Source of the DNA: Patescibacteria group bacterium
Lineage (GTDB): Bacteria; Patescibacteriota; Minisyncoccia; Phycocordibacterales; Phycocordibacteraceae
Direction: 5' to 3'
Length of the DNA stretch: 64,000 nt
Assembly (NCBI GenBank): GCA_038064495.1
Contig: JBBTSZ010000002.1
Span: 152,934-216,933, forward strand
Positions 1,741 through 63,007 of the stretch are shown here, piece by piece. Each line of letters opens with the position of its first letter. The first letter of the stretch is position 1. The notes under the pieces were generated by a model. It had not been told where the DNA came from. It ran no database searches and was given only the letters and a program-made list of their open reading frames with translations. A program made the translations under genes and the position numbers.

Positions 1741-3513
1741 ATGACATTTACATTCTTGTTCCTCGGAATTGCCTTTATTGCTGGAATCCTCACGGTACTT
1801 GCTCCCTGTATTCTTCCACTGCTACCAGTTGTGATTGGAGGGTCGGTAACAGGAGACACCAGTTTCAAACGAGCTTTTACGGTTGTGGCGGCGCTTGGGT
1901 TTTCCGTTGTTGCGTTTACGCTTCTCCTAAAAGTAAGTACGGCCTTTATTACAGTTCCGCCACTCTTCTGGCAGTTGCTTTCAGGAGGACTTCTCATTCT
2001 CTTTGGTATTCTCACGACGTTTCCAAATCTGTGGGAGAGTCTCGGTATCACCGCTCTCTTGAACATTAAGGGAAACCGACTCATGGCAACTGGTGACAAG
2101 AAACAGGGCTTCGTTGGTGATTTGCTCGTCGGCATTGCACTTGGTCCCGTGTTTACTTCGTGTAGTCCTACGTACTTCATCGTGCTTGCAACAATTCTTC
2201 CTGCAAACCCGGTCATTGGTTTTATTTATCTTCTGGCCTACACGTTTGGGCTCTCACTCTCTCTACTTCTTATTGCTGTTGTGGGACAACGCATCGTAGA
2301 CCGACTTGATCTAGCAGCAAACCCGCATGGCTGGTTTAAGCGAGGACTTGGCATTCTTTTCATCGTGATTGGTCTTGCGGTAACGTTTGGCATAGACAAA
2401 ATACTTGCCACCTCACTTCCACAGCAAGCCTACGGAATAACGGGTATTGAACAGAATCTCCTTAAGCTAACAAATGGAAAGAATGGGGATGCAACCTCAA
2501 CGCCAACGTTCGTTCCGCTAGGCACGTCAGCTACACCGCTTACGCAAATAGAAAAATCAACTCGATACGAAAAAGCACCAGAATTAGCTTCACCGAATGC
2601 GTATCTCAATACGGGAGGTGCACCGATTACGATCGGAGAGAATCGAGGAAAGAACGTCGTGCTTATAGATTTTTGGACCTACAGTTGTATCAACTGTCAG
2701 CGAACACTTCCGTACCTCAAAGCTTGGAATGAGAAATACAAGGACCAAGGATTGGTTATTATCGGTGTTCATACTCCCGAGTTCTCATTTGAACAAGTAC
2801 AGCAAAACGTAGCTGACGCGCTCAAACGTTTTGGCATAACCTATCCCGTGGTACTCGATAACCAATACAAAACCTGGAATGCATTTGGTAATCAGTATTG
2901 GCCACGCAAATACCTTATTGATATTGATGGGTATATTGTGTACGACCATGCTGGTGAGGGTAACTACGAGGAAACCGAGAAAGCGATCCAGCGAGCACTC
3001 AAAGAGAGGGCAGAACGTCTCGGACAGGACGGAAGCGGTATTCAGGGCACCGCTTCGGTATCGGCTACCGCGCCTACTTCCGCTTCGAGTCCAGAAACGT
3101 ACTTCGGTGCTTCACGAAATGAGTTCTTAGGAAACGGTAAGCCGGCATCGCCAACCAAGCAATCGCTTACGCTCCCGAGTAGTTTTCCCAAGAACAAACT
3201 ATTTCTTGGAGGTGAATGGGATATTCAATTTGAGCACGCCATAGGATCGTCTGGAGCAGATGTGGTCTATACCTATACTGCAAAAGAGGTCTACCTCGTT
3301 GCCAGTAGTGATGCGGGGGCCGAGATAGAAGTCATGCAGGATGGGAAACCACTCGGAACTATTTCTGGAGCAGACGTGAACGCATCGGGCATCGTTCCAG
3401 TAAAGGAAAGTCGTTTATACAAACTCATTAAGAATGATGCTTCAGGAACGCACACACTCAAACTCCACATGAAGAGTGGTAGCGTACGCTTCTATACCTT
3501 CACGTTTGGTTAG
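1741..3513 (+). CDS. DipZ-like fusion protein: CcdA/DsbD-type transmembrane electron transporter + thioredoxin-like domain (CINC) + C-terminal extracytoplasmic domain
   Basis: N-terminal ~230 aa polytopic with paired Cys (CILPLLP.. / TSCSPTYF); redoxin domain FWTYSCINCQRTLPYL; architecture resembles mycobacterial DipZ. Confidence 0.75.
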   Translation: MTFTFLFLGIAFIAGILTVLAPCILPLLPVVIGGSVTGDTSFKRAFTVVAALGFSVVAFTLLLKVSTAFITVPPLFWQLLSGGLLILFGILTTFPNLWESLGITALLNIKGNRLMATGDKKQGFVGDLLVGIALGPVFTSCSPTYFIVLATILPANPVIGFIYLLAYTFGLSLSLLLIAVVGQRIVDRLDLAANPHGWFKRGLGILFIVIGLAVTFGIDKILATSLPQQAYGITGIEQNLLKLTNGKNGDATSTPTFVPLGTSATPLTQIEKSTRYEKAPELASPNAYLNTGGAPITIGENRGKNVVLIDFWTYSCINCQRTLPYLKAWNEKYKDQGLVIIGVHTPEFSFEQVQQNVADALKRFGITYPVVLDNQYKTWNAFGNQYWPRKYLIDIDGYIVYDHAGEGNYEETEKAIQRALKERAERLGQDGSGIQGTASVSATAPTSASSPETYFGASRNEFLGNGKPASPTKQSLTLPSSFPKNKLFLGGEWDIQFEHAIGSSGADVVYTYTAKEVYLVASSDAGAEIEVMQDGKPLGTISGADVNASGIVPVKESRLYKLIKNDASGTHTLKLHMKSGSVRFYTFTFG

Positions 3514-4841
3514 CTCACTTCTCCGAGGTAGGGAAGGGGGAATATCTTCTCACGCTCCTTTCCGGTAAAAAGTGCATCACTTCGTTTCTTGGACATGCTT
3601 CCCATACCGCGACCTCCTGCTGCCGCTTTACCCGCTTCTATCGCCTTCATAGAGGAGCCCAAGTAAACCGAGTGTCGGCCGTAGCGTTCGTTTAGGGTAT
3701 CAACATTTTCAAAGATGCGTGCCGTACCTTCTACCTTACCCGGGTCACTAAATAAATCGAGCTGCACCTCACGCGCCTCGTGGAGTCCGGTAAGGGTTAT
3801 TCCCGTTGCTCTGTACGTGGTGCCTTTACGAAAGACTTTGAGAAAAGAAGGTTTGAGTGCCTCAATAAGTTCGTGAGGGTTACTAGTGGGGTGGGCGAGT
3901 GTAAGCTGTGCTGCGCGGTAGCGGAAGCTTGAAGATTTTAGAAAAAACGAAAACCCCGTGGCGGAGAGTCCATAACGACGAGCCTTTACGCACGCGCCCT
4001 CCATGTTCTTGGAGAGTTGTGAATACAAAAAAGCAGGGTCGCCCGAAGCAGGTGAGAAGGAGCGAGTCTTTTGTATGGAGTGGTAATTGTCCTTAGTTTC
4101 AGTGACAAGTTCTAGTACGGAAACACCGGAAAGCTCCTGCCAGATTTCAAGAGCGGGTTTAGTTACGTGAGCACGCACCCACACCTCATTTTTCTGTACG
4201 AAATCAAAGGCTGTCTTAATACCGAGCTTATTCAAATGCTCGGTTGTGTTTGGACCAATACCCCAAATCTTTCCAATCAGGGTATTTTTGAGGAACGTAT
4301 CTTTCTCCACCAGACGAATTGGTGTGAAGCCATTTGGCTTTGCGTATTTAGAACCCACCTTAGCGAGTACCTTGGTTGGAGCGATTCCTACCGAAAAAGT
4401 TATATCCAGTTCGTTTTGTAGGTCGTTCTTAATCTTCAGAGCAATCTCCTCATAGCCCATATGGTGGAGACGTCTGAGTCCCGTGATGTCTCCAAAGCAT
4501 TCATCAATGCCGTATTCTTCTACTTGAGGAGTGTAGCGTCGCATGATTTCATACATGCGCAGTGAGTAGAGGGTATAGAGCTCGTAGTCAGACGAGAGAA
4601 TAATCGCGTCCGGACAAATCTTGTGCACGTCAGCCAGACGGATACCACGCGAGACGCCACGAGCTTTCGCCTCGTACGTTGCTGCCGACACTATCCCGCG
4701 CTCCGCTCCCGTGACAACTGGCTTTCCGCGGAGCGCCGGGTTACGAGCAACTTCGCACGCGGCGAAGAAACTGTCACCGTCGACGTGTACTATCGCTTTT
4801 GGATAATAATATGAGCGCCCCCAACCCACCTCAGCTACCAT
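3510..4841 (-). CDS. Y-family translesion DNA polymerase (DinB/UmuC type)
   Basis: VHVDGDSFFAACE...GIDECFGDITG...SVGIAPTKVLAKVGS are Y-family palm/finger motifs; lies immediately downstream of lexA on the same strand. Confidence 0.8.
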   Translation of the reverse strand: MVAEVGWGRSYYYPKAIVHVDGDSFFAACEVARNPALRGKPVVTGAERGIVSAATYEAKARGVSRGIRLADVHKICPDAIILSSDYELYTLYSLRMYEIMRRYTPQVEEYGIDECFGDITGLRRLHHMGYEEIALKIKNDLQNELDITFSVGIAPTKVLAKVGSKYAKPNGFTPIRLVEKDTFLKNTLIGKIWGIGPNTTEHLNKLGIKTAFDFVQKNEVWVRAHVTKPALEIWQELSGVSVLELVTETKDNYHSIQKTRSFSPASGDPAFLYSQLSKNMEGACVKARRYGLSATGFSFFLKSSSFRYRAAQLTLAHPTSNPHELIEALKPSFLKVFRKGTTYRATGITLTGLHEAREVQLDLFSDPGKVEGTARIFENVDTLNERYGRHSVYLGSSMKAIEAGKAAAGGRGMGSMSKKRSDALFTGKEREKIFPLPYLGEVS

Positions 4842-5671: not shown

Positions 5672-6025
5672 ATGCACATTGTTGAAAGCGGAGAACCAGA
5701 CCTTACGGCTGTAGCTCAGGAAATTATGAAGCCTTTACTCGGTTGGCTGGAAAGCATCAACTGTACTCCAGCCAGGTTTAACGAAGTCATGCGCAGTGAA
5801 GAGTATTCTCATGACTCACGATTGACCTCACTCGGCATCACTCAGACGCAATTCGAAGAGGGTATAGAGACTATCCAGTCTCTCCATCTTTATGCCTTGA
5901 TACTCGGCATAAAGAAAGAAGAACTCTGGGCTGGTTTTGAAACCCACCAGTATTTTGCGCCTCGATGGCTCATCGAGAATGTCGAGAACGCTATGCGAGA
6001 TAATTTTGCTGGCAGTTGCGGCTGA
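5672..6025 (+). CDS. hypothetical protein, divergent from lexA and sharing the SOS-box region
   Basis: ATG at 5672 preceded by AGGAG (5661-5665); 117 aa with no recognisable motif; the longer ORF from 5573 would overlap the operator. Confidence 0.5.
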   Translation: MHIVESGEPDLTAVAQEIMKPLLGWLESINCTPARFNEVMRSEEYSHDSRLTSLGITQTQFEEGIETIQSLHLYALILGIKKEELWAGFETHQYFAPRWLIENVENAMRDNFAGSCG

Positions 6026-6096: not shown

Positions 6097-7587
6097 TTAC
6101 GTGTCCAAGAAGTGGTTGAAGATAGATGTTTCCTGCTGGAGCAAATGGGAAGGCCTGAATAGGTTATTCCACTCGTTCATGACCGATTCATCCTTGAAGA
6201 GATCCTTCAACAAAAGATTCCAGGGAATGATGTCATCCACCGACGCCTGAAGCGAATCAACAGGATACAACAAGCCAGAGCTGATAATATCCCGAAGGTT
6301 TGTGCTCGTAGGCACAGTTGGAACGAGCTCAAAGGACGTCAGGAACGCATCAGCCTTTTCAAGACTCTCTGCGCGTGCTTCCCGAAGTTCTTGCCGAGCA
6401 GGTCCCGGTTCAAACGCGCAGAAGCTTGCCAGCTGAACGATTCGATAGGCTTCGTTTGCAGGCAGAGCGCGCTCGGCGAGCTTTCCCGCAAGGAAGTTTT
6501 TCGCTTCGTCCGATGCATAGGTGCAACGGCTTGCTTGGATTTCTTCCAGCATATTGTCCGGATAGACCACCAACTTGGTGAGAACTTCGGTCATCACGTT
6601 GAGCATGCGCAGAGTGATATGGAACAGGTCAGGCCAGTCTACACGCTCCACACAGGATTGCTCAATCGCGCGAGCTTCCCATGTTTGAATCCCCGCAACA
6701 ATGGAAGCGACACGTCCACGCGCAAGGAGCACCATACCTCTCATCTGTTCCGTACGGATGGTGTTTTTCTTGTGTGGCATTGCAGAGGAACCTTTTTGGA
6801 GTTTTCCAAAGGGTTCATGCCATAACGGTTGTCCGCTTCTCGCTCCGAGCCGAATATCCAGTGCTATTTTGCCAAGAGTCTCGCACAGTACCTGAAGGCT
6901 CTGCGCGAGCGGAGCGTAGATGCTCCGCGGCATGATCTGTGTTGCGCCGACATACGCAGAGAGACCGAGGATGTTGAGTGCCTCTTTTTCAATTCTCGGG
7001 GTGAGACCACCGCCATAATTGCCGATCGCGCCTGAAAGTCGTGATTGCATACAATAGCCGACGCCGACTTTCAGTTGGTCACGAGCGAGCTGTAAGTCGG
7101 CAACGTAGGTGAGCAGGCGTCCACCAAAGGTGCGTAACTTTGCAGCTTGTCCGTGTGTGCGCTCAAGGAATATCGTGTATCGATAGTCTTTCGCCATCTT
7201 TTCAAGACTCTCGAGAAGTGCCGAAAGTTCATTATCGACATATTCGTGCGATTCACGTAGCGCAATGGCGAATGCCGCTTCTTCCGTGTCGTAGCTCGTC
7301 ATATCCTTATGAAACTCCGACTGGAGCTCGTTTGGAATGAAGCGTTGACGCTCTTCAAGGAAGGCGTTCAGGTCATGGTGGAGAACGCGATCGCGTTCGA
7401 GCCACCAGGCAACGTCTGGCGCATTGTTTGCGAGCGCCAGCTCAATCTGGTTGTAGACCGACGCGTCGGTAAGTTTCAGATTGACGCGTGCCTTGATAAC
7501 AGCAAGTTCAACCCGTTCCCAACGAAGGAGCTTTTCAGCATCGCTCCAGAGATAATCGATTTCCGGGTTTGAATACCGAGGAATCAT
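6097..7587 (-). CDS. purB: adenylosuccinate lyase, with a ~50 aa C-terminal extension
   Basis: Fumarate-lyase signature GSSAMPHKKNTIRTE; overall PurB-like. Confidence 0.85.
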   Translation of the reverse strand: MIPRYSNPEIDYLWSDAEKLLRWERVELAVIKARVNLKLTDASVYNQIELALANNAPDVAWWLERDRVLHHDLNAFLEERQRFIPNELQSEFHKDMTSYDTEEAAFAIALRESHEYVDNELSALLESLEKMAKDYRYTIFLERTHGQAAKLRTFGGRLLTYVADLQLARDQLKVGVGYCMQSRLSGAIGNYGGGLTPRIEKEALNILGLSAYVGATQIMPRSIYAPLAQSLQVLCETLGKIALDIRLGARSGQPLWHEPFGKLQKGSSAMPHKKNTIRTEQMRGMVLLARGRVASIVAGIQTWEARAIEQSCVERVDWPDLFHITLRMLNVMTEVLTKLVVYPDNMLEEIQASRCTYASDEAKNFLAGKLAERALPANEAYRIVQLASFCAFEPGPARQELREARAESLEKADAFLTSFELVPTVPTSTNLRDIISSGLLYPVDSLQASVDDIIPWNLLLKDLFKDESVMNEWNNLFRPSHLLQQETSIFNHFLDT

Positions 7588-7630: not shown

Positions 7631-7663
7631 CACGCTACTTATAGCACTATCCGCCCACAACTT

Positions 7664-10600
7664 CTATAGAGCGGTTTCCTTGTGTGCGTATAGTTCACGA
7701 ATCTTCTTTCCTGGCCAGCGGTAGTACAAAACAGGAATGAGCACGAGGGTAAGAAGGAGCGAGAAGGCGAGGCCCGCCATGATGGAGAAGGCGAGTGGTG
7801 CCCAGAATGGTGAGGCGAACACAAGTGGAATCATACCAATCACCGTCACCACCGTGGTGAGCAAAATAGGACGAAGACGTGTGGACGCCGCTTCAATAAC
7901 CACTTCTTCAAGGTTCATCTCCGGATGCTCGCGGTGAATACGCGCGATAGAGTCCATGAGAATAATGGCGTGGTTGATGATGACGCCAGCAAGCGCAATC
8001 ACCCCGAGCATAGACGTAAGTGAGAGCGGCTGACCGACAAGGGTGAGGCCAACGAACACACCTACGAGAGAAAGAGGAATGATGGAAAGAAGATAGAAGG
8101 ACTGGCGGAATGAATTGAACTCAAGTACGAGAATGGAAAGCATGAGTGCTGCGCCTGCGATAAGTGCGAGGAAGAGTTCGGTAAACGATTTACCAACATC
8201 CTCAGACTCACCACCAAGCTTTACGGTCACTCCTTTACCAATGAGGTTCGACGTCAGTTTTTTCTGGAATTGGTTGGTTAACTCAATAGCATTTGCTTTA
8301 GGGCCCACGTCCGCTGTAACGGTGGCAATGCGGTGGCCTGCCTCGTGATGAATAGCAGTCTGCGAAGGTTCATACGTAACAGTAGCAATGGTTGAAAGTA
8401 CTACCGGGCCCTTACTACCCGGGATGAGAAGATCACGAACGGCATCAATAGAGGTGTGCGTCGTTTCAGAAGGATCTCGGTAGTTCGGGTTGAGCGCAAG
8501 TTTGGTACGCACCTCAATGTCGTTCTTTCCGGTCTTAATAGTTGTCGCCTTGGCACTGAAAAGCGCAGTGCGGAGTGTGTCTGCAACCGTGAGTGGAGAA
8601 ACACCGAGCTCAGCCGCCTTACTGCTATCAAGAGAAACGACAAACTCGGCACTCGCTTCTTTGGAAGAAGCAGTAATATTCACGACGCCGGGCATATCCG
8701 AAAGAATGTGCGCAGCATTGTCTGCGGTTGTAGAAAGCTCGCCGAGATCATCTCCACTCAAAGTAATGGTGATAGGTGACGCTGCTGGAGGTCCGCCTGC
8801 TGGTTCACCAACGGTGACAGCGGCTGAGGTGACGGTTGCAAATTGTGTACGAAGCTCCGTGACGAAGTCGGCACTAGACTGTTTATGACCTTTCGGCAGA
8901 TTCACCGTGATGTTACCGATATTGGTTCCTGAAGAAGGTCCACCACCGAGAGCGCTTGCAAAGGAACTACCCGCACCCACCTCCGTTACGAAGGAAGCGA
9001 CATGTTTGTTGCCGTAGAGCTGTTCTTCTATCTCACGAACGGCGAGGTCTGTTTCGGTTAGTTCAGTGCCTTGTGGCTTTTCTATTTGCACATAAATAGT
9101 GTCAGCATCTTCTCCCGGGAAGAATTCAGATTTTAGAAGGCCGGTTACGGGAAGCAAAAGAGAGAGAATAAAGAGACCAACCATCACTTGGAGGAAACGG
9201 TTCTGGTCATGTTTACTCCGAAGCATCTTGTACAAGAAGTTCTGATACCACTGCCTCGCCACACGGTTGTATTTTTCCTGACGCTCAGTGAGTGCATCAT
9301 GAGACGTTTTGACGTAGAACATGGCGAGAAGTGGTACGAAGCCAAGTGCCACAAAGATTGACGCAAGGAGTACGAAAATAACCGTAAATGGTATGGAGGC
9401 AAGGAACTTTCCGACGATACCGGAAAGGAAGAAGAGAGGAATGAACACCACGATGGTGGTGAAGGTTCCTGCAATAAGGGGCCAGGCATACTCACGAATG
9501 GCAGAGACTGCCGCTGCGTGTTTATCACCGTGTTTACGTACGTGCGTATGGAAAGCCTCCACCACCACAATGCCGGAGTCCACCAAGATACCGATGGCAA
9601 GAATGAGTGAGAATAACGAGACGTTGTTGAGGGTGTTGCCGGACGCAAGGAGTCCAATGAAGGCAACCAGGAAAGAAAGCGGAATGGAAGCCGCTGCAAC
9701 AAGAGACTCACGCCAGCCGAGCGTGACGAGAAGCACGAGCATCACCAGAATAACGGTTTCAACACCAGCACGCGTAAGCTCGGTGAGACTTTTGTTCACT
9801 TCCTCAGCTGCGTTGTAAGAAATGACAATATCGGTACCGGTGAGGAGTCCCTCTTTCTTCAAATCTTCAAGACGCTTTTCTACCGCGTGACCGGTGGCAA
9901 CAATGTTCCCACCACGACTCTTGTGAATGGTGAGGGTGAGGGAAGGCTCTGCTGGCTTCCCTTGAACGGATACGCGAGAGAAGGTCGTCGGGTCTTCAAG
10001 ACCATCCACCACCTCTGCCACGTCTCGCACATGGAGGGTTGCGCCACCGGGGCCGAGCAGTGCCACGTTACCAACTTGATCGGTAGAGGGAACGCCCGAT
10101 TCAAAACGAACGGCGTAGTTCACACCGTCTACCGTGATAGAACCCGCAGGCGAAGCGACACCTGCAGAGCGAATCGCGTTTGTGACATCACTGAGTGAAA
10201 GATTGTACTGGCGAAGTCGCTCTGCTTTCACAATCACCTGAACCTCACGTGCACGTACGCCCGAAACACCTACCTTTGAGACTCCAGAAACACGCTTCAA
10301 TTCGTCCGAGACATTCTCACCAAGCGCGGTGAGTTCTGCAGGTGCGAGATTTCCCGATATGGAAACGATAAGAATCGGTTGGTCCGCAAAGTTGGTATCA
10401 GAAACAGTCGGGTCAAGTGCCTCAGCAGGCAAGTCAGGACGTACTTTGTCCACGGCGTCCTTCAACAGTTGAATGGACTTATCAATATTGGCTGAAGAAT
10501 CAAATTCAACAGACACGATAGAAATGCCAGCTCCTGAGGTGGAAGTGACTTTTGACACGTGTTCAACGCCAAGAACCCCATTTTCAATCTTGTCGGTAAT

Positions 10601-28452: not shown

Positions 28453-29145
28453 ATGGAACGGAAACAGCCAGTCGCAGTCTTTGATATAGACGGAACCATC
28501 TTCCGCTCATCACTCTTAATTGAGCTTGTGGAGGAGCTGGTAAAGCGCGAGATTTTCCCGCAGTCAGCGAGCAAACTCTACGAGAATGCCTACGAAGACT
28601 GGCTCAATCGGAAGGGCGAGTACGGACCGTTCATTCAAAAAGTCGTGCTTGCGTTTGGCAACTATGCGAAAGGCATTCCATACGGCGACGTCGCAGACGT
28701 CGCCGGAGAAATCATTGAAGCGAAGCGCGACCGGTTGTATCGCTACACCCGTGACCTCATAGATGACCTTCGCAAGAAAGATTATTTTCTCCTCGCCATC
28801 TCACACTCACCAAAGTTTATTGTGGACGGATTTGCGTACGAGCTCGGCTTCAATAAATCCTACGGAACGTTCTATGATACCGGTGCAAGCAACCGCTTCA
28901 CCGGAGAAATCATTGATGAGCACATCATTATGAATAAGGCTGCCATCCTTGCGCGCGCGATGGAGAAGGAAAACCTGAGCGTCACGGGCTCTGTTGGTGT
29001 GGGGGACACCGAGAGTGATATTTCTATGCTCACCATGGTGGAGACACCGATAGCGTTTAACCCGAACCGGCTCCTGTACCGTCACGCCAAGAAGAACGAT
29101 TGGAAGATAATCGTTGAGCGTAAGGACGTGATTTATGAGATATGA
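28453..29145 (+). CDS. HAD-superfamily hydrolase, subfamily IB (phosphoserine-phosphatase-like)
   Basis: VAVFDIDGTI (motif I), ISHSP (motif II), GVGDTESD (motif IV). Confidence 0.75.
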   Translation: MERKQPVAVFDIDGTIFRSSLLIELVEELVKREIFPQSASKLYENAYEDWLNRKGEYGPFIQKVVLAFGNYAKGIPYGDVADVAGEIIEAKRDRLYRYTRDLIDDLRKKDYFLLAISHSPKFIVDGFAYELGFNKSYGTFYDTGASNRFTGEIIDEHIIMNKAAILARAMEKENLSVTGSVGVGDTESDISMLTMVETPIAFNPNRLLYRHAKKNDWKIIVERKDVIYEI

Positions 29146-29822
29146 GTGACCAAGAAGTGCAAGTGCACTCAGAAGAGACTAAAACCAGATTAAGTAATAA
29201 TAGGACTTTAATAATCCTAACCGTTTCCTTCATATGTCTAGCCATACTCTGTTGGCCGATTATTTCTTTGTTTCTATCACCTGGCATTAAATTTGATCTC
29301 CAACTCTTTGCATTGACAGTTATACTAGTCTCACTCTTCGTTTTCATCTTAGTAAGAACGATCAAGCGAAATCTACCAGAAGAACTACTCTTTGTCATAT
29401 TAGGTGTGCTTCTAAGCATCTTGTTCTTTCTGTCAGATGTTTCTAAAGATGATTTGAGTACCATACAGGATCTCGCGGCTTCCCATTCCTATAACTGCTT
29501 AGTTGCTGAGGGTATATTGAATGATAATAAAGTCATCAATTCGATTTCGTACAGCCAGTATGAACCGAGTATTCTTTTTAACGATTTGGGTTTTATCTTT
29601 GAAAAGTATGGTACATCCACTCAAGCGAGAGTCGGTATTGCAACTTACCAAATGAATTATTCCAATAAACTCTTAATTGGAACTACAAATCTGGACACGC
29701 CAGCTTTCTCAACAAGTACCTTAGCGGCAATTACATCTCACAAAACTCAATTAAGTGCACTTGCTACGGAGATAAGTAACGCACTCAATTGTTCAGCTAC
29801 ACGAACAGAGAAGAAACCTTAA
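29142..29822 (+). CDS. hypothetical membrane protein, visibly AT-richer than its neighbours
   Basis: 226 aa, 3 TM then a Ser/Thr/Asn-rich domain; overlaps the HAD gene by 4 nt. Confidence 0.5.
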   Translation: MSDQEVQVHSEETKTRLSNNRTLIILTVSFICLAILCWPIISLFLSPGIKFDLQLFALTVILVSLFVFILVRTIKRNLPEELLFVILGVLLSILFFLSDVSKDDLSTIQDLAASHSYNCLVAEGILNDNKVINSISYSQYEPSILFNDLGFIFEKYGTSTQARVGIATYQMNYSNKLLIGTTNLDTPAFSTSTLAAITSHKTQLSALATEISNALNCSATRTEKKP

Positions 29823-29848
29823 AGCTCTATCTTTGATATACTCCCAGC

Positions 29849-30085
29849 ATGACAAAACGCTTATATCGTAGCCGGACCAATAAAGTGCTCGCAGGCATTT
29901 GTGGAGGAATAGGGGAATATTTTGAAGTTGACCCAGTGCTTATCCGTCTTCTCTACCTCCTCGCCACTGTCTTCACGGGTGTGGTTCCCGGACTTCTTGC
30001 GTATGTGATTGCTATCGCGGTAGTGCCAGAAGCCCCGTTCATCACTCCATCCAAACCAGTCGCGGATGAACCGACAAAAGTTTAG
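29849..30085 (+). CDS. PspC-domain protein
   Basis: LYRSRTNKVLAGICGGIGEYFEVDPVLIRL is the PspC signature. Confidence 0.75.
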   Translation: MTKRLYRSRTNKVLAGICGGIGEYFEVDPVLIRLLYLLATVFTGVVPGLLAYVIAIAVVPEAPFITPSKPVADEPTKV

Positions 30086-30875
30086 GAATCTCGTTTGGAG
30101 TTATTACGAGGAGCACGGAAGAAACTCACTTCCGTGGAGAAAAACTAAAGACCCATACAAGATACTTGTTTCCGAGATGATGCTCCAACAAACCCAGGTG
30201 GAGCGGGTTATTCCGTACTATAAAAAATTTGTTCAAACATATCCGACCATACAAGCACTTGCTCGCGCACCACTGGCAGACGTACTGAAGATATGGCAAG
30301 GACTAGGATACAACCGCAGAGCCAAATTTCTGCATAAGGCCGCTCAACAAATTGTTTCTACATATAATGGGAAGATTCCTACGGATGCGGCTGAGTTGGA
30401 ATCAGTTTGGGGTATAGGTCCATACACTGCACATGCAGTTATGACATTTGCATTCAACCACGATGCTGTATTTATTGAGACCAATATACGTACAGTCATC
30501 ATCCATCACTTCTACAAAGATGACGAATCAATTTCTGAAGAAGATATTGCAAACGTATTAAAGAAAATGCTTCCACATGGAGAGGCACGGGCATGGTATT
30601 CAGCACTGATGGACTACGGTGCGTACTTAAAACGCTCAGGGGTGCGTATCAACACAAAAGCAAAAGGCTACACTAAACAATCAACCTTTATCGGCTCAGA
30701 CCGACAGGCACGAGGCGCAATTCTGAAAGAACTTTCAATAAGACCAGCAAGCGCGAAGCGCCTCTCGGGACTTCTTGGTGACGACCGAAAACCACAACTT
30801 TCACTGCAACTCGGAAAACTCTTAAAGGAAGGAATGATTCAGAAAAAAGGAACACGCTACCAACTCCCGGCCTAG
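30066..30875 (+). CDS. MutY/Nth-like HhH-GPD adenine glycosylase (no Fe-S cluster loop)
   Basis: LPWRKTKDPYKILVSEMMLQQTQVERV and GIGPYTAHAVMTFAF (HhH-GPD). Confidence 0.7.
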   Translation: MNRQKFRNLVWSYYEEHGRNSLPWRKTKDPYKILVSEMMLQQTQVERVIPYYKKFVQTYPTIQALARAPLADVLKIWQGLGYNRRAKFLHKAAQQIVSTYNGKIPTDAAELESVWGIGPYTAHAVMTFAFNHDAVFIETNIRTVIIHHFYKDDESISEEDIANVLKKMLPHGEARAWYSALMDYGAYLKRSGVRINTKAKGYTKQSTFIGSDRQARGAILKELSIRPASAKRLSGLLGDDRKPQLSLQLGKLLKEGMIQKKGTRYQLPA

Positions 30876-60850: not shown

Positions 60851-61573
60851 TCACAAAAGTTCACGCACCAGATTATGATATATGCCATCAATACTCCCCA
60901 TTATCCTTGCAAAATAAAGTCGCCCCGGGACACGCACGGCCATGGTTCCGTATGGAAGAGTAGTCCCTGGTCTAATTTTTTTGCTAGCTTTACTCACTGC
61001 ATTTGAATACCAGAATTTCTCTTTTGGAATGCCACTAATGTTTGACCAGTATCGCTTAGCCGTATTTGGGTCGATACCATCATATAAACGCAATTCACCG
61101 GACAATTTCTCTTCGGGTACATGTAGAGACTCTCGAATAAATCTCATAAAAACCTGAATCACTCTCGGATCAGAGTTTGTAAAAATCAAGCGAGGAGTTT
61201 TTCCAATTCCACCACTTTTCGTACCTTCACCCCAATAGAGTGTTGTTCCTATGAGAAAGATTTCACGTTGCGTAAGAGCTCCTACCAAATCCTTACCAGT
61301 AATATATGCCGTAGCATCGGCGTCACGTATCTTTCTTGACCTTTCATCATTAAATTTCTTAAATCCAGACCTCGCCGTTTTCTCGGTAGTATGTAGAAGT
61401 CTCTTTTTAGCATCAGCGGATAACGCAAGGTCCTTGAGCCAATGACTTAGTGTGCCACGAGAACTGACCTGGAGTTTTTCCTGAATTTCCCTATAGCTGA
61501 AACCTGAAAGACGTAGATTAATGGCCTTCTCCTTGGTTCCTGGAGGGACTCGTTGCCTATATTTTGAACCCAT
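60851..61573 (-). CDS. N-terminal HTH DNA-binding protein with a possible single-motif LAGLIDADG-like core (tentative)
   Basis: GFSYREIQEKLQVSSRGTLSHWLKDL looks like an HTH; FLIGTTLYWGEGTKS loosely resembles LAGLIDADG; adjacent to tRNA-Glu. Confidence 0.5.
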   Translation of the reverse strand: MGSKYRQRVPPGTKEKAINLRLSGFSYREIQEKLQVSSRGTLSHWLKDLALSADAKKRLLHTTEKTARSGFKKFNDERSRKIRDADATAYITGKDLVGALTQREIFLIGTTLYWGEGTKSGGIGKTPRLIFTNSDPRVIQVFMRFIRESLHVPEEKLSGELRLYDGIDPNTAKRYWSNISGIPKEKFWYSNAVSKASKKIRPGTTLPYGTMAVRVPGRLYFARIMGSIDGIYHNLVRELL

Positions 61574-61621: not shown

Positions 61622-61693
61622 ACATAAATCATGACCCTACGGAGAATCGAACTCCGATTTCCTGCGTGAAAGGCGGGCGTCCTAACCGTTAGA
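61622..61693 (-). tRNA. tRNA-Glu (anticodon TTC)
   Basis: Minus strand GGCCCTA-TC-GTCTAACGGTTAGGAC-G-CCCGC-CTTTCAC-GCAGG-AAAT-CGGAGTTCGATTCTCCG-TAGGGTC-A; one C-A mismatch in the anticodon stem as I read it. Confidence 0.75.
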
Positions 61694-61757
61694 CGATAGG
61701 GCCACACTGCTATATCCTACATTTTTACAGCCTAAAATGCTAGGATTTGCGAACCCG

Positions 61758-61842
61758 GGAGAGGTGCGTGAGTGGTTGAAACGACCGGTTTCGAAAACCG
61801 GCATACCGCAAGGTATCGAGGGTTCAAATCCCTCCCTCTCCG
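61758..61842 (+). tRNA. tRNA-Ser (anticodon CGA), class II
   Basis: Acceptor GGAGAGG/CCTCTCC, anticodon stem CCGGT/ACCGG with loop TTCGAAA, long variable arm, T-loop TTCAAAT. Confidence 0.85.
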
Positions 61843-61845
61843 CTC

Positions 61846-61912
61846 TTGACAAAGAGTTATTGATATGTTTATATAATGTCAGATTTGGATTTTGAGCTAT
61901 TGTGGCTCAAAA
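61846..61912 (+). promoter_or_regulatory. strong candidate promoter TTGACA-N18-TATATAAT followed by 8-bp IR TTTTGAGC-N7-GCTCAAAA, driving the high-GC gene
   Basis: Perfect -35 starts 4 nt after the tRNA-Ser(CGA) 3' end; extended TATATAAT at 61870-61877; IR at 61890-61912; AGGAGG at 61935-61940. Confidence 0.5.
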
Positions 61913-61948
61913 CAAGCACATTCCCAAGCAAAACAGGAGGTACAGCAA

Positions 61949-62806
61949 ATGACACTTACCGAACTTCTGCAGATCGGCGACGAGGTCGTCTTTAAGGTCG
62001 ACCCCGAACGTCGCGCGTGGACGGACACCTACAAGGATGTTCCCGACGGCACCAAGGGTATCGTATGCGGCTTCTACGATGCCGTCATCTACGAATCTCG
62101 TGTGCCGGTTCTCGTGCATCAACCCGGCGTCTACCACCGCAAGGGCGCGGTGTCGGTCTGGCTTCGAGACGGCCGTGTCGTTCCCGGTGACTGGTCGATC
62201 GAGATGGTCGACAAGGACCAGGAGAAGCGTCGCGACGCCGCACTGCGTGGCGCCGACGGCGTGCTTCGCACCGAACAGGTACGCCTCGGCGACCTGCCGG
62301 AAACCAAGTTCTGGGAACAGGACAAGGTGCGTGTCCGCTTTCCGCATGACGGCAACGAGCACGAGATGGTCATCGGCCGTATCGACTACCATCACCTGCA
62401 CAAGTGTCGTGACGACGGCTCACCATGGCCTTTCTACGATGTGCGGCGGTACATGGAAGGTGGTCAGATCAGCGCCGAGGAGTCGTGGATTGAGCTCATC
62501 GAGCGCGGCAACGTCTGGAAGTATCACAACAACCAGCCGCTCTCGTTCGCCGATCTGAAGGAGGAAGCCAGCTTCTTCCAACTGGTCGGACAGACCGAGG
62601 AGATGCGCAATCCGGCGAACGGCTACTACAGCTGGACGAAGGATGAAGTGCTCGAGGCCATCAAGAATGGCACCGTGCACGGCTTCTCGGTCAGTAGCGG
62701 CTTCTTCGGCTCCGGTCCGCATATCAACGCTCAGCGCTTCAAGGACGAGGCGCTCGGCAAGCGAGTTGCGAAGGCTACGCTCGAAGGCTTTGACATCGCC
62801 GCCTGA
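61949..62806 (+). CDS. hypothetical protein encoded by a visibly high-GC gene (compositional island next to tRNA-Ser)
   Basis: AGGAGG 8 nt upstream; 285 aa with no recognisable motif; GC clearly above the flanks, giving rise to long overlapping frame-shadow ORFs. Confidence 0.55.
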   Translation: MTLTELLQIGDEVVFKVDPERRAWTDTYKDVPDGTKGIVCGFYDAVIYESRVPVLVHQPGVYHRKGAVSVWLRDGRVVPGDWSIEMVDKDQEKRRDAALRGADGVLRTEQVRLGDLPETKFWEQDKVRVRFPHDGNEHEMVIGRIDYHHLHKCRDDGSPWPFYDVRRYMEGGQISAEESWIELIERGNVWKYHNNQPLSFADLKEEASFFQLVGQTEEMRNPANGYYSWTKDEVLEAIKNGTVHGFSVSSGFFGSGPHINAQRFKDEALGKRVAKATLEGFDIAA

Positions 62807-62835
62807 ACAACCACTACGTGACTTCGGTCACATCA

Positions 62836-62878
62836 GGGCACCCATGGACTCTGTCCCTCTGGGTGCCCTTTCTTTTTT
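62836..62878 (+). terminator. intrinsic terminator GGGCACCCA...TGGGTGCCC + TTTCTTTTTT
   Basis: 9-bp stem with a long T-tract. Confidence 0.7.
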
Positions 62879-63007
62879 ATAATTTCTCTTCAAAACGGCG
62901 CGGATTTGCACACATCATTGGTCACCAGGGTTCAATTCAAAATACATTCGAACTTCGTTCAACACGCACCGCATCTATATTCAGAAATACTTGGTAAGAT
63001 ATCTGCA

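Follow-up and report, generated by a model that had tools for sequence, protein, structure and literature searches.

In a 64,000-nucleotide (nt) stretch of a groundwater Patescibacteria genome (contig JBBTSZ010000002.1, positions 152,934 to 216,933 of the forward strand; the whole stretch is called the window below), a segment beside a tRNA-Ser(CGA) gene, from 61844 to about 62940, is probably a horizontally acquired, self-contained expression cassette that resembles the morons of phages, has no recombinase and encodes a single protein of 285 amino acids (aa) for which a part in phage-host conflict is proposed. That the gene is horizontally acquired cargo, as the original prediction made from the letters of this DNA had it, is strongly supported: its composition is foreign, its copies in other genomes stand in unrelated neighborhoods, and promoter and terminator DNA are shared among them. 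The protein is probably a conflict factor, and that function, reached only loosely, is the least certain step of the explanation.

The unit consists of a promoter, a leader with a stem-loop and a CACAUUCC box, a ribosome-binding site, the 285-aa gene, a UUCG hairpin, a terminator and the remains of a third hairpin. All the sequence features predicted earlier were found, either where expected or a few bases away. The parts, in window positions, and the open reading frames (ORFs) antisense to the gene are:

61758-61843, plus strand: tRNA-Ser(CGA) (ARAGORN; Rfam tRNA, 57.6 bits), a host gene that borders the insertion on its left
61846-61851, plus strand: -35 hexamer TTGACA, 3 nt past the ARAGORN end of tRNA-Ser and the first conserved bases of the cassette
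61866-61877, plus strand: -10 region, read from the sequence
61866-61867 (TG) and 61869-61874 (TTATAT), plus strand: probable extended -10, TG-n-TTATAT, with a 17-nt spacing to the -35 hexamer
61890-61912, plus strand: inverted repeat TTTTGAGC-N7-GCTCAAAA, as RNA the leader stem-loop UUUUGAGCUA-UUG-UGGCUCAAAA
61916-61925, plus strand: conserved leader box GCACAUUCCC (also given as CACAUUCC and GCACAUUCC)
61935-61940, plus strand: Shine-Dalgarno sequence AGGAGG, 8 nt 5′ of the ATG
61949-62806, plus strand: coding sequence for the 285-aa protein (ORF list, homologues, substitution pattern, AlphaFold)
62818-62831, plus strand: small 3′ hairpin GUGAC-UUCG-GUCAC, from folding
62835-62878, plus strand: intrinsic terminator, a two-tier hairpin (62835-62869) with a T run to 62878
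62879-62940, plus strand: degenerate remnant of a third cassette module, aligned with L008, L040, L041 and L019 (L numbers designate loci)
61907-62401 (164 aa) and 62420-62722 (100 aa), minus strand: antisense shadow ORFs from the ORF list, not genes

Composition and reading frame

The gene had been singled out as the most GC-rich of the window and foreign to it, and the statistics agree: its GC is 0.605 and its GC at third codon positions (GC3) 0.77 in a window of about 50% GC. Measured against all other 858-nt windows (mean 0.499, standard deviation 0.024, maximum 0.571) its GC has a z of +4.4, the other long ORFs of the window (n=51) have a mean GC3 of 0.503 with a standard deviation of 0.053, and 62001-63000 is the top tetranucleotide outlier among the 1-kb windows of the 64 kb (z = 3.7). 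The deviation in GC, GC3 and tetranucleotides is significant, and the gene's composition is foreign to the DNA around it. An outlier in the opposite direction lies at 28800-30400, where 800-nt windows have 0.40-0.42 GC; the plus-strand ORF at 29142-29822 has a GC of 0.376 and a GC3 of 0.354, and the region holds the second most deviant tetranucleotide window (z 2.8).

Long shadow ORFs accompany the gene on both strands, as predicted, with a third, of 173 aa, in another plus frame joining the two on the minus strand. In one public ENA assembly of the same genome (L022, Hainich aquifer) the two antisense shadows are annotated, as minus-strand gene calls at 2900-3385 and 3413-3715 that correspond to window 61907-62392 and 62420-62722, and the real gene is omitted; because that annotation carries the shadows, the 285-aa protein is absent from the exact-match protein index. 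Those calls speak for the minus-strand ORFs at 61907-62401 and 62420-62722 being the real genes and the plus-strand ORF their shadow, an idea to which we give almost no credence and which the pattern of conservation refutes. The plus frame is taken as the coding frame because it has full-length homologues, down to 31% identity, because its ratio of nonsynonymous to synonymous substitution rates (dN/dS) is 0.10-0.21, with dS at 0.5-1.1, as expected of long-term purifying selection, and because its GC3 (0.75-0.77) exceeds GC at first positions (0.65) and that in turn GC at second positions (0.39). Promoter, ribosome-binding site and terminator are moreover all oriented plus, and it is the plus-frame protein that has a confident fold prediction. 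Initiation at a TTG further upstream, at 61892, would give 304 aa; as all homologues begin MTLxELL, the ATG at 61949 is the true start.

Expression signals and conserved non-coding modules

Of the promoter predicted for the gene, the TTGACA hexamer 3 nt past the tRNA stands, while the TATAAT noted with it in TATATAAT (61872-61877) lies, at 20 nt, too far from the -35, and TG-n-TTATAT is favored in its place. A consensus scan made no promoter call because the -10 is of this extended type; its TGn-TAnnAT layout recurs in L008, L010, L013 and L039. Transcription would start near 61882. TTGAC(A) is found about 70-120 nt 5′ of the ATG in 24 of the 26 cassette-type loci, with TGACA in L015 and TTGTCA in L099. 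The strong AGGAGG that had been pointed out is present.

The 8-bp inverted repeat had been called operator-like. The repeat is there, and the comparison of loci makes a stem-loop in the RNA, close to the 5′ end of the transcript, a likelier reading than an operator, as the repeat tolerates a G-U pair, carries a compensatory variant in L039 and in L011 rebuilds its stem with a different partner arm. The stem-loop is predicted in the window, L040 and L038, and its sequence is identical in L010; L012, like L011, has different arms, and L008 has no hairpin. The leader box precedes family genes of both cassette clades (window, L038, L040, L047, L018, L019 and L020), and leader hairpin and box together are common to clade-B copies at 41-45% protein identity.

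The strong terminator anticipated after the gene has an outer stem of GGGCACCCA/UGGGUGCCC, an inner stem of GGAC/GUCC and a U run, with a folding energy of -31.4 kcal/mol (z = -5.1 against shuffles). The outer stem covaries, four of its pairs being changed on both sides, which was equaled by 1 of 500 shuffles. Most cassette-type loci also have a strong terminator, and the 0.925 Mb of DNA retrieved contained the motif nowhere except 3′ of family genes. The small UUCG hairpin before it has the same sequence in L008 and L010 as in the window and differs by a single substitution in L040. Beyond the terminator, L008, L040, L041 and the distant L019 have in common a further module of CAAGGGAGUAAUUCC, a hairpin and GGGAUUUGUGYRYNCACUGGG, the hairpin (hairpin 3) showing compensatory change between loci, GCCGUUUU/AAAACGGC versus GCCAUUUU/AAAAUGGU. 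In the window just the right half of this module is left (62892 to about 62940), with its right arm AAAACGGCGCGGAUUUGC at 62892-62909; the left arm was apparently lost by deletion between two TTTTATAA repeats, and as the module is degenerate here the right end of the insertion is approximate. In L008 the Shine-Dalgarno and start region (5987-6001) is complementary at 14 of 15 positions to the loop of hairpin 3 (6955-6969), a complementarity not seen in L040 or the window. Leader, terminator and post-terminator region had no match in Rfam, and the exact terminator sequence had none in IMG/VR.

Between clades at 41-50% protein identity, conservation is higher in leader and terminator than in the protein. 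The window and L020 have the same 31-nt core in the terminator hairpin and agree at 48 of 49 aligned bases of their 3′ untranslated regions (UTRs), with proteins that are 41% identical; among close copies the 3′ UTRs are 95-97% identical versus about 56-61% at synonymous sites. The conserved modules may have a function beyond expression or may have been exchanged by recombination. They speak for a reading in which the unit is a new kind of selfish mobile cassette, with end modules recognized in trans by recombination machinery of phage or host, or with a protein that helps its own gene to spread much as in homing. That the modules occur solely with the family gene, that the borders are sharp and the distribution across classes sporadic, and that the gene always travels alone would fit as well. 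This reading is nonetheless doubtful, if worth keeping in mind. No terminal inverted or direct repeats are common to L008, L040 and L019, the insertion sites are diverse in a way that homing would not lead one to expect, the conserved modules are all plausible as expression signals, and neither motif nor fold points to a nuclease or a recombinase. For nucleases, LAGLIDADG, GIY-YIG, HNH, His-Cys, PD-(D/E)xK and EDxHD domains were without a Pfam, NCBIfam, PDB or fold match; for recombinases, the sole ORF of the cassette has no signature and its neighbors have none either. The attC cores of integron cassettes (RYYYAAC / GTTRRRY) were not seen in the 3′ regions, inspected by eye and without an attC model. 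Integron cassettes are similar in being mobile single-ORF units with a structured 3′ element and no recombinase of their own, but the present unit has its own strong promoter, forms no array and has no IntI nearby, its copies standing singly in unrelated housekeeping surroundings. Homing endonuclease genes are likewise solitary and intergenic, with their own expression signals and a sporadic distribution; unlike them, this gene has no nuclease motif or fold and its insertion sites in different genomes are non-homologous.

A related and similarly tentative possibility, one that we would not bet on, is a long-lived 'nomadic' lineage of expression cassettes, mobile without a recombinase and restricted to ultra-small prokaryotes. 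Were that so, the RNA modules of leader and trailer, whose conservation exceeds that of the protein, would have a function within the element; they might bind its own Tudor/SH3-like protein, in autoregulation or as a ribonucleoprotein, or might serve mobilization in trans, and a GC of about 58% across hosts of 30-54% GC would mean that residence in each is shorter than amelioration, the gradual approach of acquired DNA to the composition of its host.

Copies in other genomes and the site of insertion

Close copies are present in several lineages of the Candidate Phyla Radiation (CPR, or Patescibacteria), at these protein identities:

L008, Magasanikbacteria: 88%; gene GC 0.58, flanks 0.30
L010, Nomurabacteria: 86%; gene GC 0.583, flanks 0.375
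L009, Parcubacteria: 84%
L011, Saccharibacteria: 82%
L012, Paceibacterota: 79%

The close cassette copies have a GC of 0.55-0.63 and a GC3 of 0.65-0.85, in flanks that range from 0.30 to 0.54. Relatives thus carry the gene elsewhere and at high GC, the reverse of a gene kept in place with a composition like its surroundings. DNA similarity among the window, L008, L010, L038 and L040 sets in at TCTTGACA and extends as far as the terminator or a little past it; across genomes the homology sets in just past tRNA-Ser of the window, with TTGACA marking its left edge. Since the same junctions occur in independent assemblies, the unit is not an assembly artefact or chimera.

Could the gene instead be a native CPR gene, vertically inherited, whose high GC comes from selection on codon usage for expression or on amino-acid content? 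The strong purifying selection, the strong expression signals and the excess of gene GC over flank GC in most cassette loci are compatible with it, yet we consider it very improbable. The gene neighborhood is entirely different in every genome, and no neighbor gene family recurs among the 31 loci. Identities of 82-88% span class-level CPR lineages, and a rough neighbor-joining tree, in which the Saccharibacteria copies are split over three clades, is incongruent with taxonomy. The copies share promoter and UTR DNA too, and a scan of 185,579 species representatives, of limited sensitivity, found just 14 loci. Nor does the protein need a high GC: many members have 0.35-0.45 like their flanks, so that high GC as an intrinsic feature of the family was rejected, and because distant metagenome members generally match flank GC (0.35-0.64) it is a property of particular cassette lineages and not of the protein. 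Vertical inheritance is contradicted by neighborhoods, tree, shared UTR DNA and low-GC members together. Within the favored reading of a horizontally acquired cassette, the intermediate GC3 of the cassette-type copies L014, L016, L043, L048 and L049 is consistent with amelioration. The idea that L013 and L043 are one contig with two copies was considered and rejected. A SAM riboswitch at L040 5406-5517, about 550 nt 3′ of the L040 cassette, belongs to a host gene beyond the insertion.

To the left of the unit lie the tRNA pair and a gene with a helix-turn-helix (HTH) match:

60851-61573, minus strand: HTH neighbor gene, 240 aa, with a weak N-terminal HTH_28 match
61631-61704, minus strand: tRNA-Glu(TTC) (ARAGORN, Rfam)

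The position at a tRNA 3′ end had been taken, together with the foreign composition, as the signature of horizontally acquired cargo. The cassette does abut tRNA-Ser, and a tRNA within 500 nt is found at 6 of about 24 distinct loci when 5-10% would be expected from tRNA density (binomial P 0.0016-0.028). The tRNAs are of five species, however (Ser-CGA, Leu-GAG, Glu-TTC twice, Arg-TCT and Ala-TGC), and there is no integrase in the unit; as the signature of a tRNA island this is weak, and adjacency to a tRNA is no more than a tendency. A direct repeat of the tRNA-Ser 3′ end was looked for downstream and not found; what there is amounts to a 15/19 match between the T-arm (61812-61830) and 62920-62938, which stops short of the tRNA 3′ terminus, lies in DNA that aligns, weakly there, with the post-terminator extension of cassettes at other sites, and is not reproduced beside tRNA-Leu in L008. 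A second weak repeat pairs 61734-61750 with 62893-62909. Both are probably chance or part of the 3′ extension of the cassette.

These observations bear on the possibility that the segment is what remains, after deletion of the rest, of a tRNA-targeting integrative island or prophage inserted at the 3′ end of tRNA-Ser(CGA). A promoter beginning 3 nt past the tRNA, the excess of nearby tRNAs, the T-arm-like repeat and the presence of the family in phages all lend it something. It is unlikely all the same, as no integrase is found in or beside the unit, here or at the other loci, the repeat has the shortcomings just given, and three quarters of the loci have no tRNA. Islands linked to tRNAs by tyrosine integrases share with the cassette its abutment on a tRNA 3′ end and its foreign composition, but the cassette, of about 1 kb, has a single gene and lacks both an integrase and att direct repeats, and its other copies are at other tRNAs or at none. 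In Magasanikbacteria L001 the cassette lies between tRNA-Leu(GAG) (7656-7743) and an RNase P RNA gene (9140-9531), and other copies are 0.8-1.5 kb from LOOT RNA (L009 7683-7804) and tmRNA (L012 8337-8731). Because these RNA genes also occur nearby, the pattern suggests a preference for permissive spacers beside RNA genes instead of a specific attachment site targeted by an integrase. In L093 a 55%-identical copy (2211-2458) is 1.5 kb downstream of the same divergent Ser(CGA)/Glu(TTC) tRNA pair in a mirrored arrangement.

It had further been surmised that the HTH gene belongs to the same insertion. It does not: it is an outlier toward low GC (0.425, GC3 0.35), and a relative accompanies the cassette at just one other locus, L066 (402-953), where it is 30% identical and immediately precedes the family gene. 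The HTH gene of the window encodes, in its C-terminal part, a putative LAGLIDADG-like stretch, 'LYWGEGTK', read by eye. The other neighbors at this locus include, besides the tRNAs, Sua5 and an MGMT-like gene, and no phage genes were found around the cassette in the window.

The protein, its relatives and the proposed role

The gene had been described as an orphan, which it is not; it founds, in this analysis, an uncharacterized protein family. A search of 5.8 billion proteins gave 148 full-length homologues of about 260-310 aa, those from named organisms being all from metagenome-assembled genomes (MAGs) of Patescibacteria/CPR and none having a Pfam domain; a profile search of 1.84 billion cluster representatives gave 674 clusters at E <= 1e-3 and 328 at E <= 1e-30, with the best 150 nearly all single full-length matches of about 190-370 aa. 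That no motif could be recognized in the protein has held up: Pfam, PHROGs, PADLOC and NCBIfam yielded no usable match with the single sequence or with all 51 members of its alignment, and PDB sequence and profile searches with the 285-aa protein yielded nothing usable either. INPHARED phages had no protein match. A 35%-identical member at native GC (0.38 versus 0.37) in a Nanoarchaeia (DPANN) MAG (L021 6001-6897) extends the family to ultra-small archaea or their viruses. The sole match outside CPR, DPANN and viral material was also the single one in PLSDB, on a 1.3-Mb replicon of Rhizobium leguminosarum (NZ_CP140867.1, 1145372-1145980), at 29% identity over 82% of the query (E 4e-11).

The homology searches were complemented by structure prediction. 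An AlphaFold model from the 51-sequence alignment is confident (pLDDT, the predicted local distance difference test, 92.7; pTM, the predicted template-modeling score, 0.83) and consists of two beta-barrels that may be of an SH3/Tudor-like type (about 10-87 and 110-176) and a C-terminal alpha/beta domain (176-285). Foldseek searches of PDB and BFVD returned only weak tandem Tudor, Agenet, SH3 and KOW matches, to the barrels (E 5e-3 to 1e-1), with TM-scores below 0.25 over the whole protein; the C-terminal domain modeled alone (pLDDT 92.6) had no Foldseek match, the best E being 0.08. The barrels weakly resemble 53BP1, SGF29, ADCP1 and the Spt5 KOW, and among Tudor-like phage domains Hva1_TUDOR and DUF4314; unlike tandem Tudor, Agenet, SH3 and KOW proteins, this one belongs to none of those sequence families and has a C-terminal domain of about 110 aa without a match. 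The protein is soluble, with an isoelectric point of 5.5, a net charge of about -10 and no transmembrane segment. Gly, Pro, Trp and Tyr account for most of its invariant residues, which also include D125 and N221.

Relatives are also present on ten IMG/VR contigs of 60-500 kb, at 33-49% identity, the tenth match being a 37-residue fragment at 57%. They have the GC of their surroundings and lie in tight co-oriented gene arrays, that is, operons, one of which contains small unannotated ORFs together with Metallophos, dCMP deaminase and SprT-like genes; another such array adjoins CobT-VWA and CobS-like genes. The viral loci inspected for them (L027, L029, L109 and L078) are without the promoter, leader and terminator; in L034 a TTGACA precedes the family gene by about 40 nt. 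The likely source of the cassettes, as far as these relatives point to one, is a phage-linked, high-GC reservoir.

Phage morons, defined by Hendrix and colleagues, are autonomous promoter-gene-terminator units of lambdoid and other phages. The cassette is like them in being a single gene between its own promoter and an intrinsic terminator, in its composition unlike the surroundings, in its horizontal acquisition and in having relatives in phage genomes. It differs in residing in a cellular chromosome with no prophage around it, in recurring as the same unit in many hosts diverse at the level of phyla, and in having a leader and terminator conserved above the protein.

Horizontal gene transfer and prophages are common in groundwater Patescibacteria (PMC12455944). 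On the favored explanation of a moron-like acquisition, the unit would move as DNA, by phage transduction, DNA uptake or illegitimate recombination, and would have landed here in the spacer downstream of tRNA-Ser(CGA). Deletion in streamlined genomes would then trim everything except the functional unit from promoter to terminator, which could be why the borders are sharp. The protein would be abundantly expressed and act alone, its two SH3/Tudor-like barrels binding a protein partner or possibly RNA, and would be a factor of phage-host conflict, serving for example superinfection exclusion, defense or takeover.

Several points weigh against this explanation. Trimming by deletion does not explain a leader and terminator conserved above the coding sequence. 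No empty site was found in a close relative, the insertion being deduced by comparison: the gene downstream has relatives of just 54-65% identity, which are not in synteny, and L023, another contig from the same site, represents the same strain and contains the cassette. A donor with a near-identical copy at matching GC was not identified among the loci, the closest in composition being L020 (flank 0.59, 41% identity), L027 (flank 0.61, 43%) and L041 (flank GC 0.70, 75% identity over a partial match). The viral status of the relatives is that of the IMG/VR classification and two inspected neighborhoods, and the rough neighbor-joining tree does not settle the direction of exchange between phages and CPR. 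As to function, no catalytic motif was recognized among the invariant residues, the PADLOC models of already described defense systems had no match to the 285-aa protein at E <= 1, and there is no defense-island context.

For annotation, the problem is that gene callers swap the real gene for antisense shadow ORFs in at least one public assembly. With hundreds of unannotated clusters, a confident predicted structure and a C-terminal domain for which no matching fold was found, the family is a good target for structural and functional work, and the set of promoter, leader and terminator, which evidently functions in many hosts, might be used as a portable expression module in the emerging genetics of the CPR. 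The CPR account for a large part of bacterial diversity, with genomes that are tiny; their ways of acquiring genes are, to our knowledge, poorly understood. Locus tags of this family, or a CPR moron of this kind, were not mentioned in the literature consulted. The cassette provides a traceable case: a single unit of about 1 kb is shared by CPR lineages that differ at class level, and distant relatives turn up in large phages and a DPANN archaeon.

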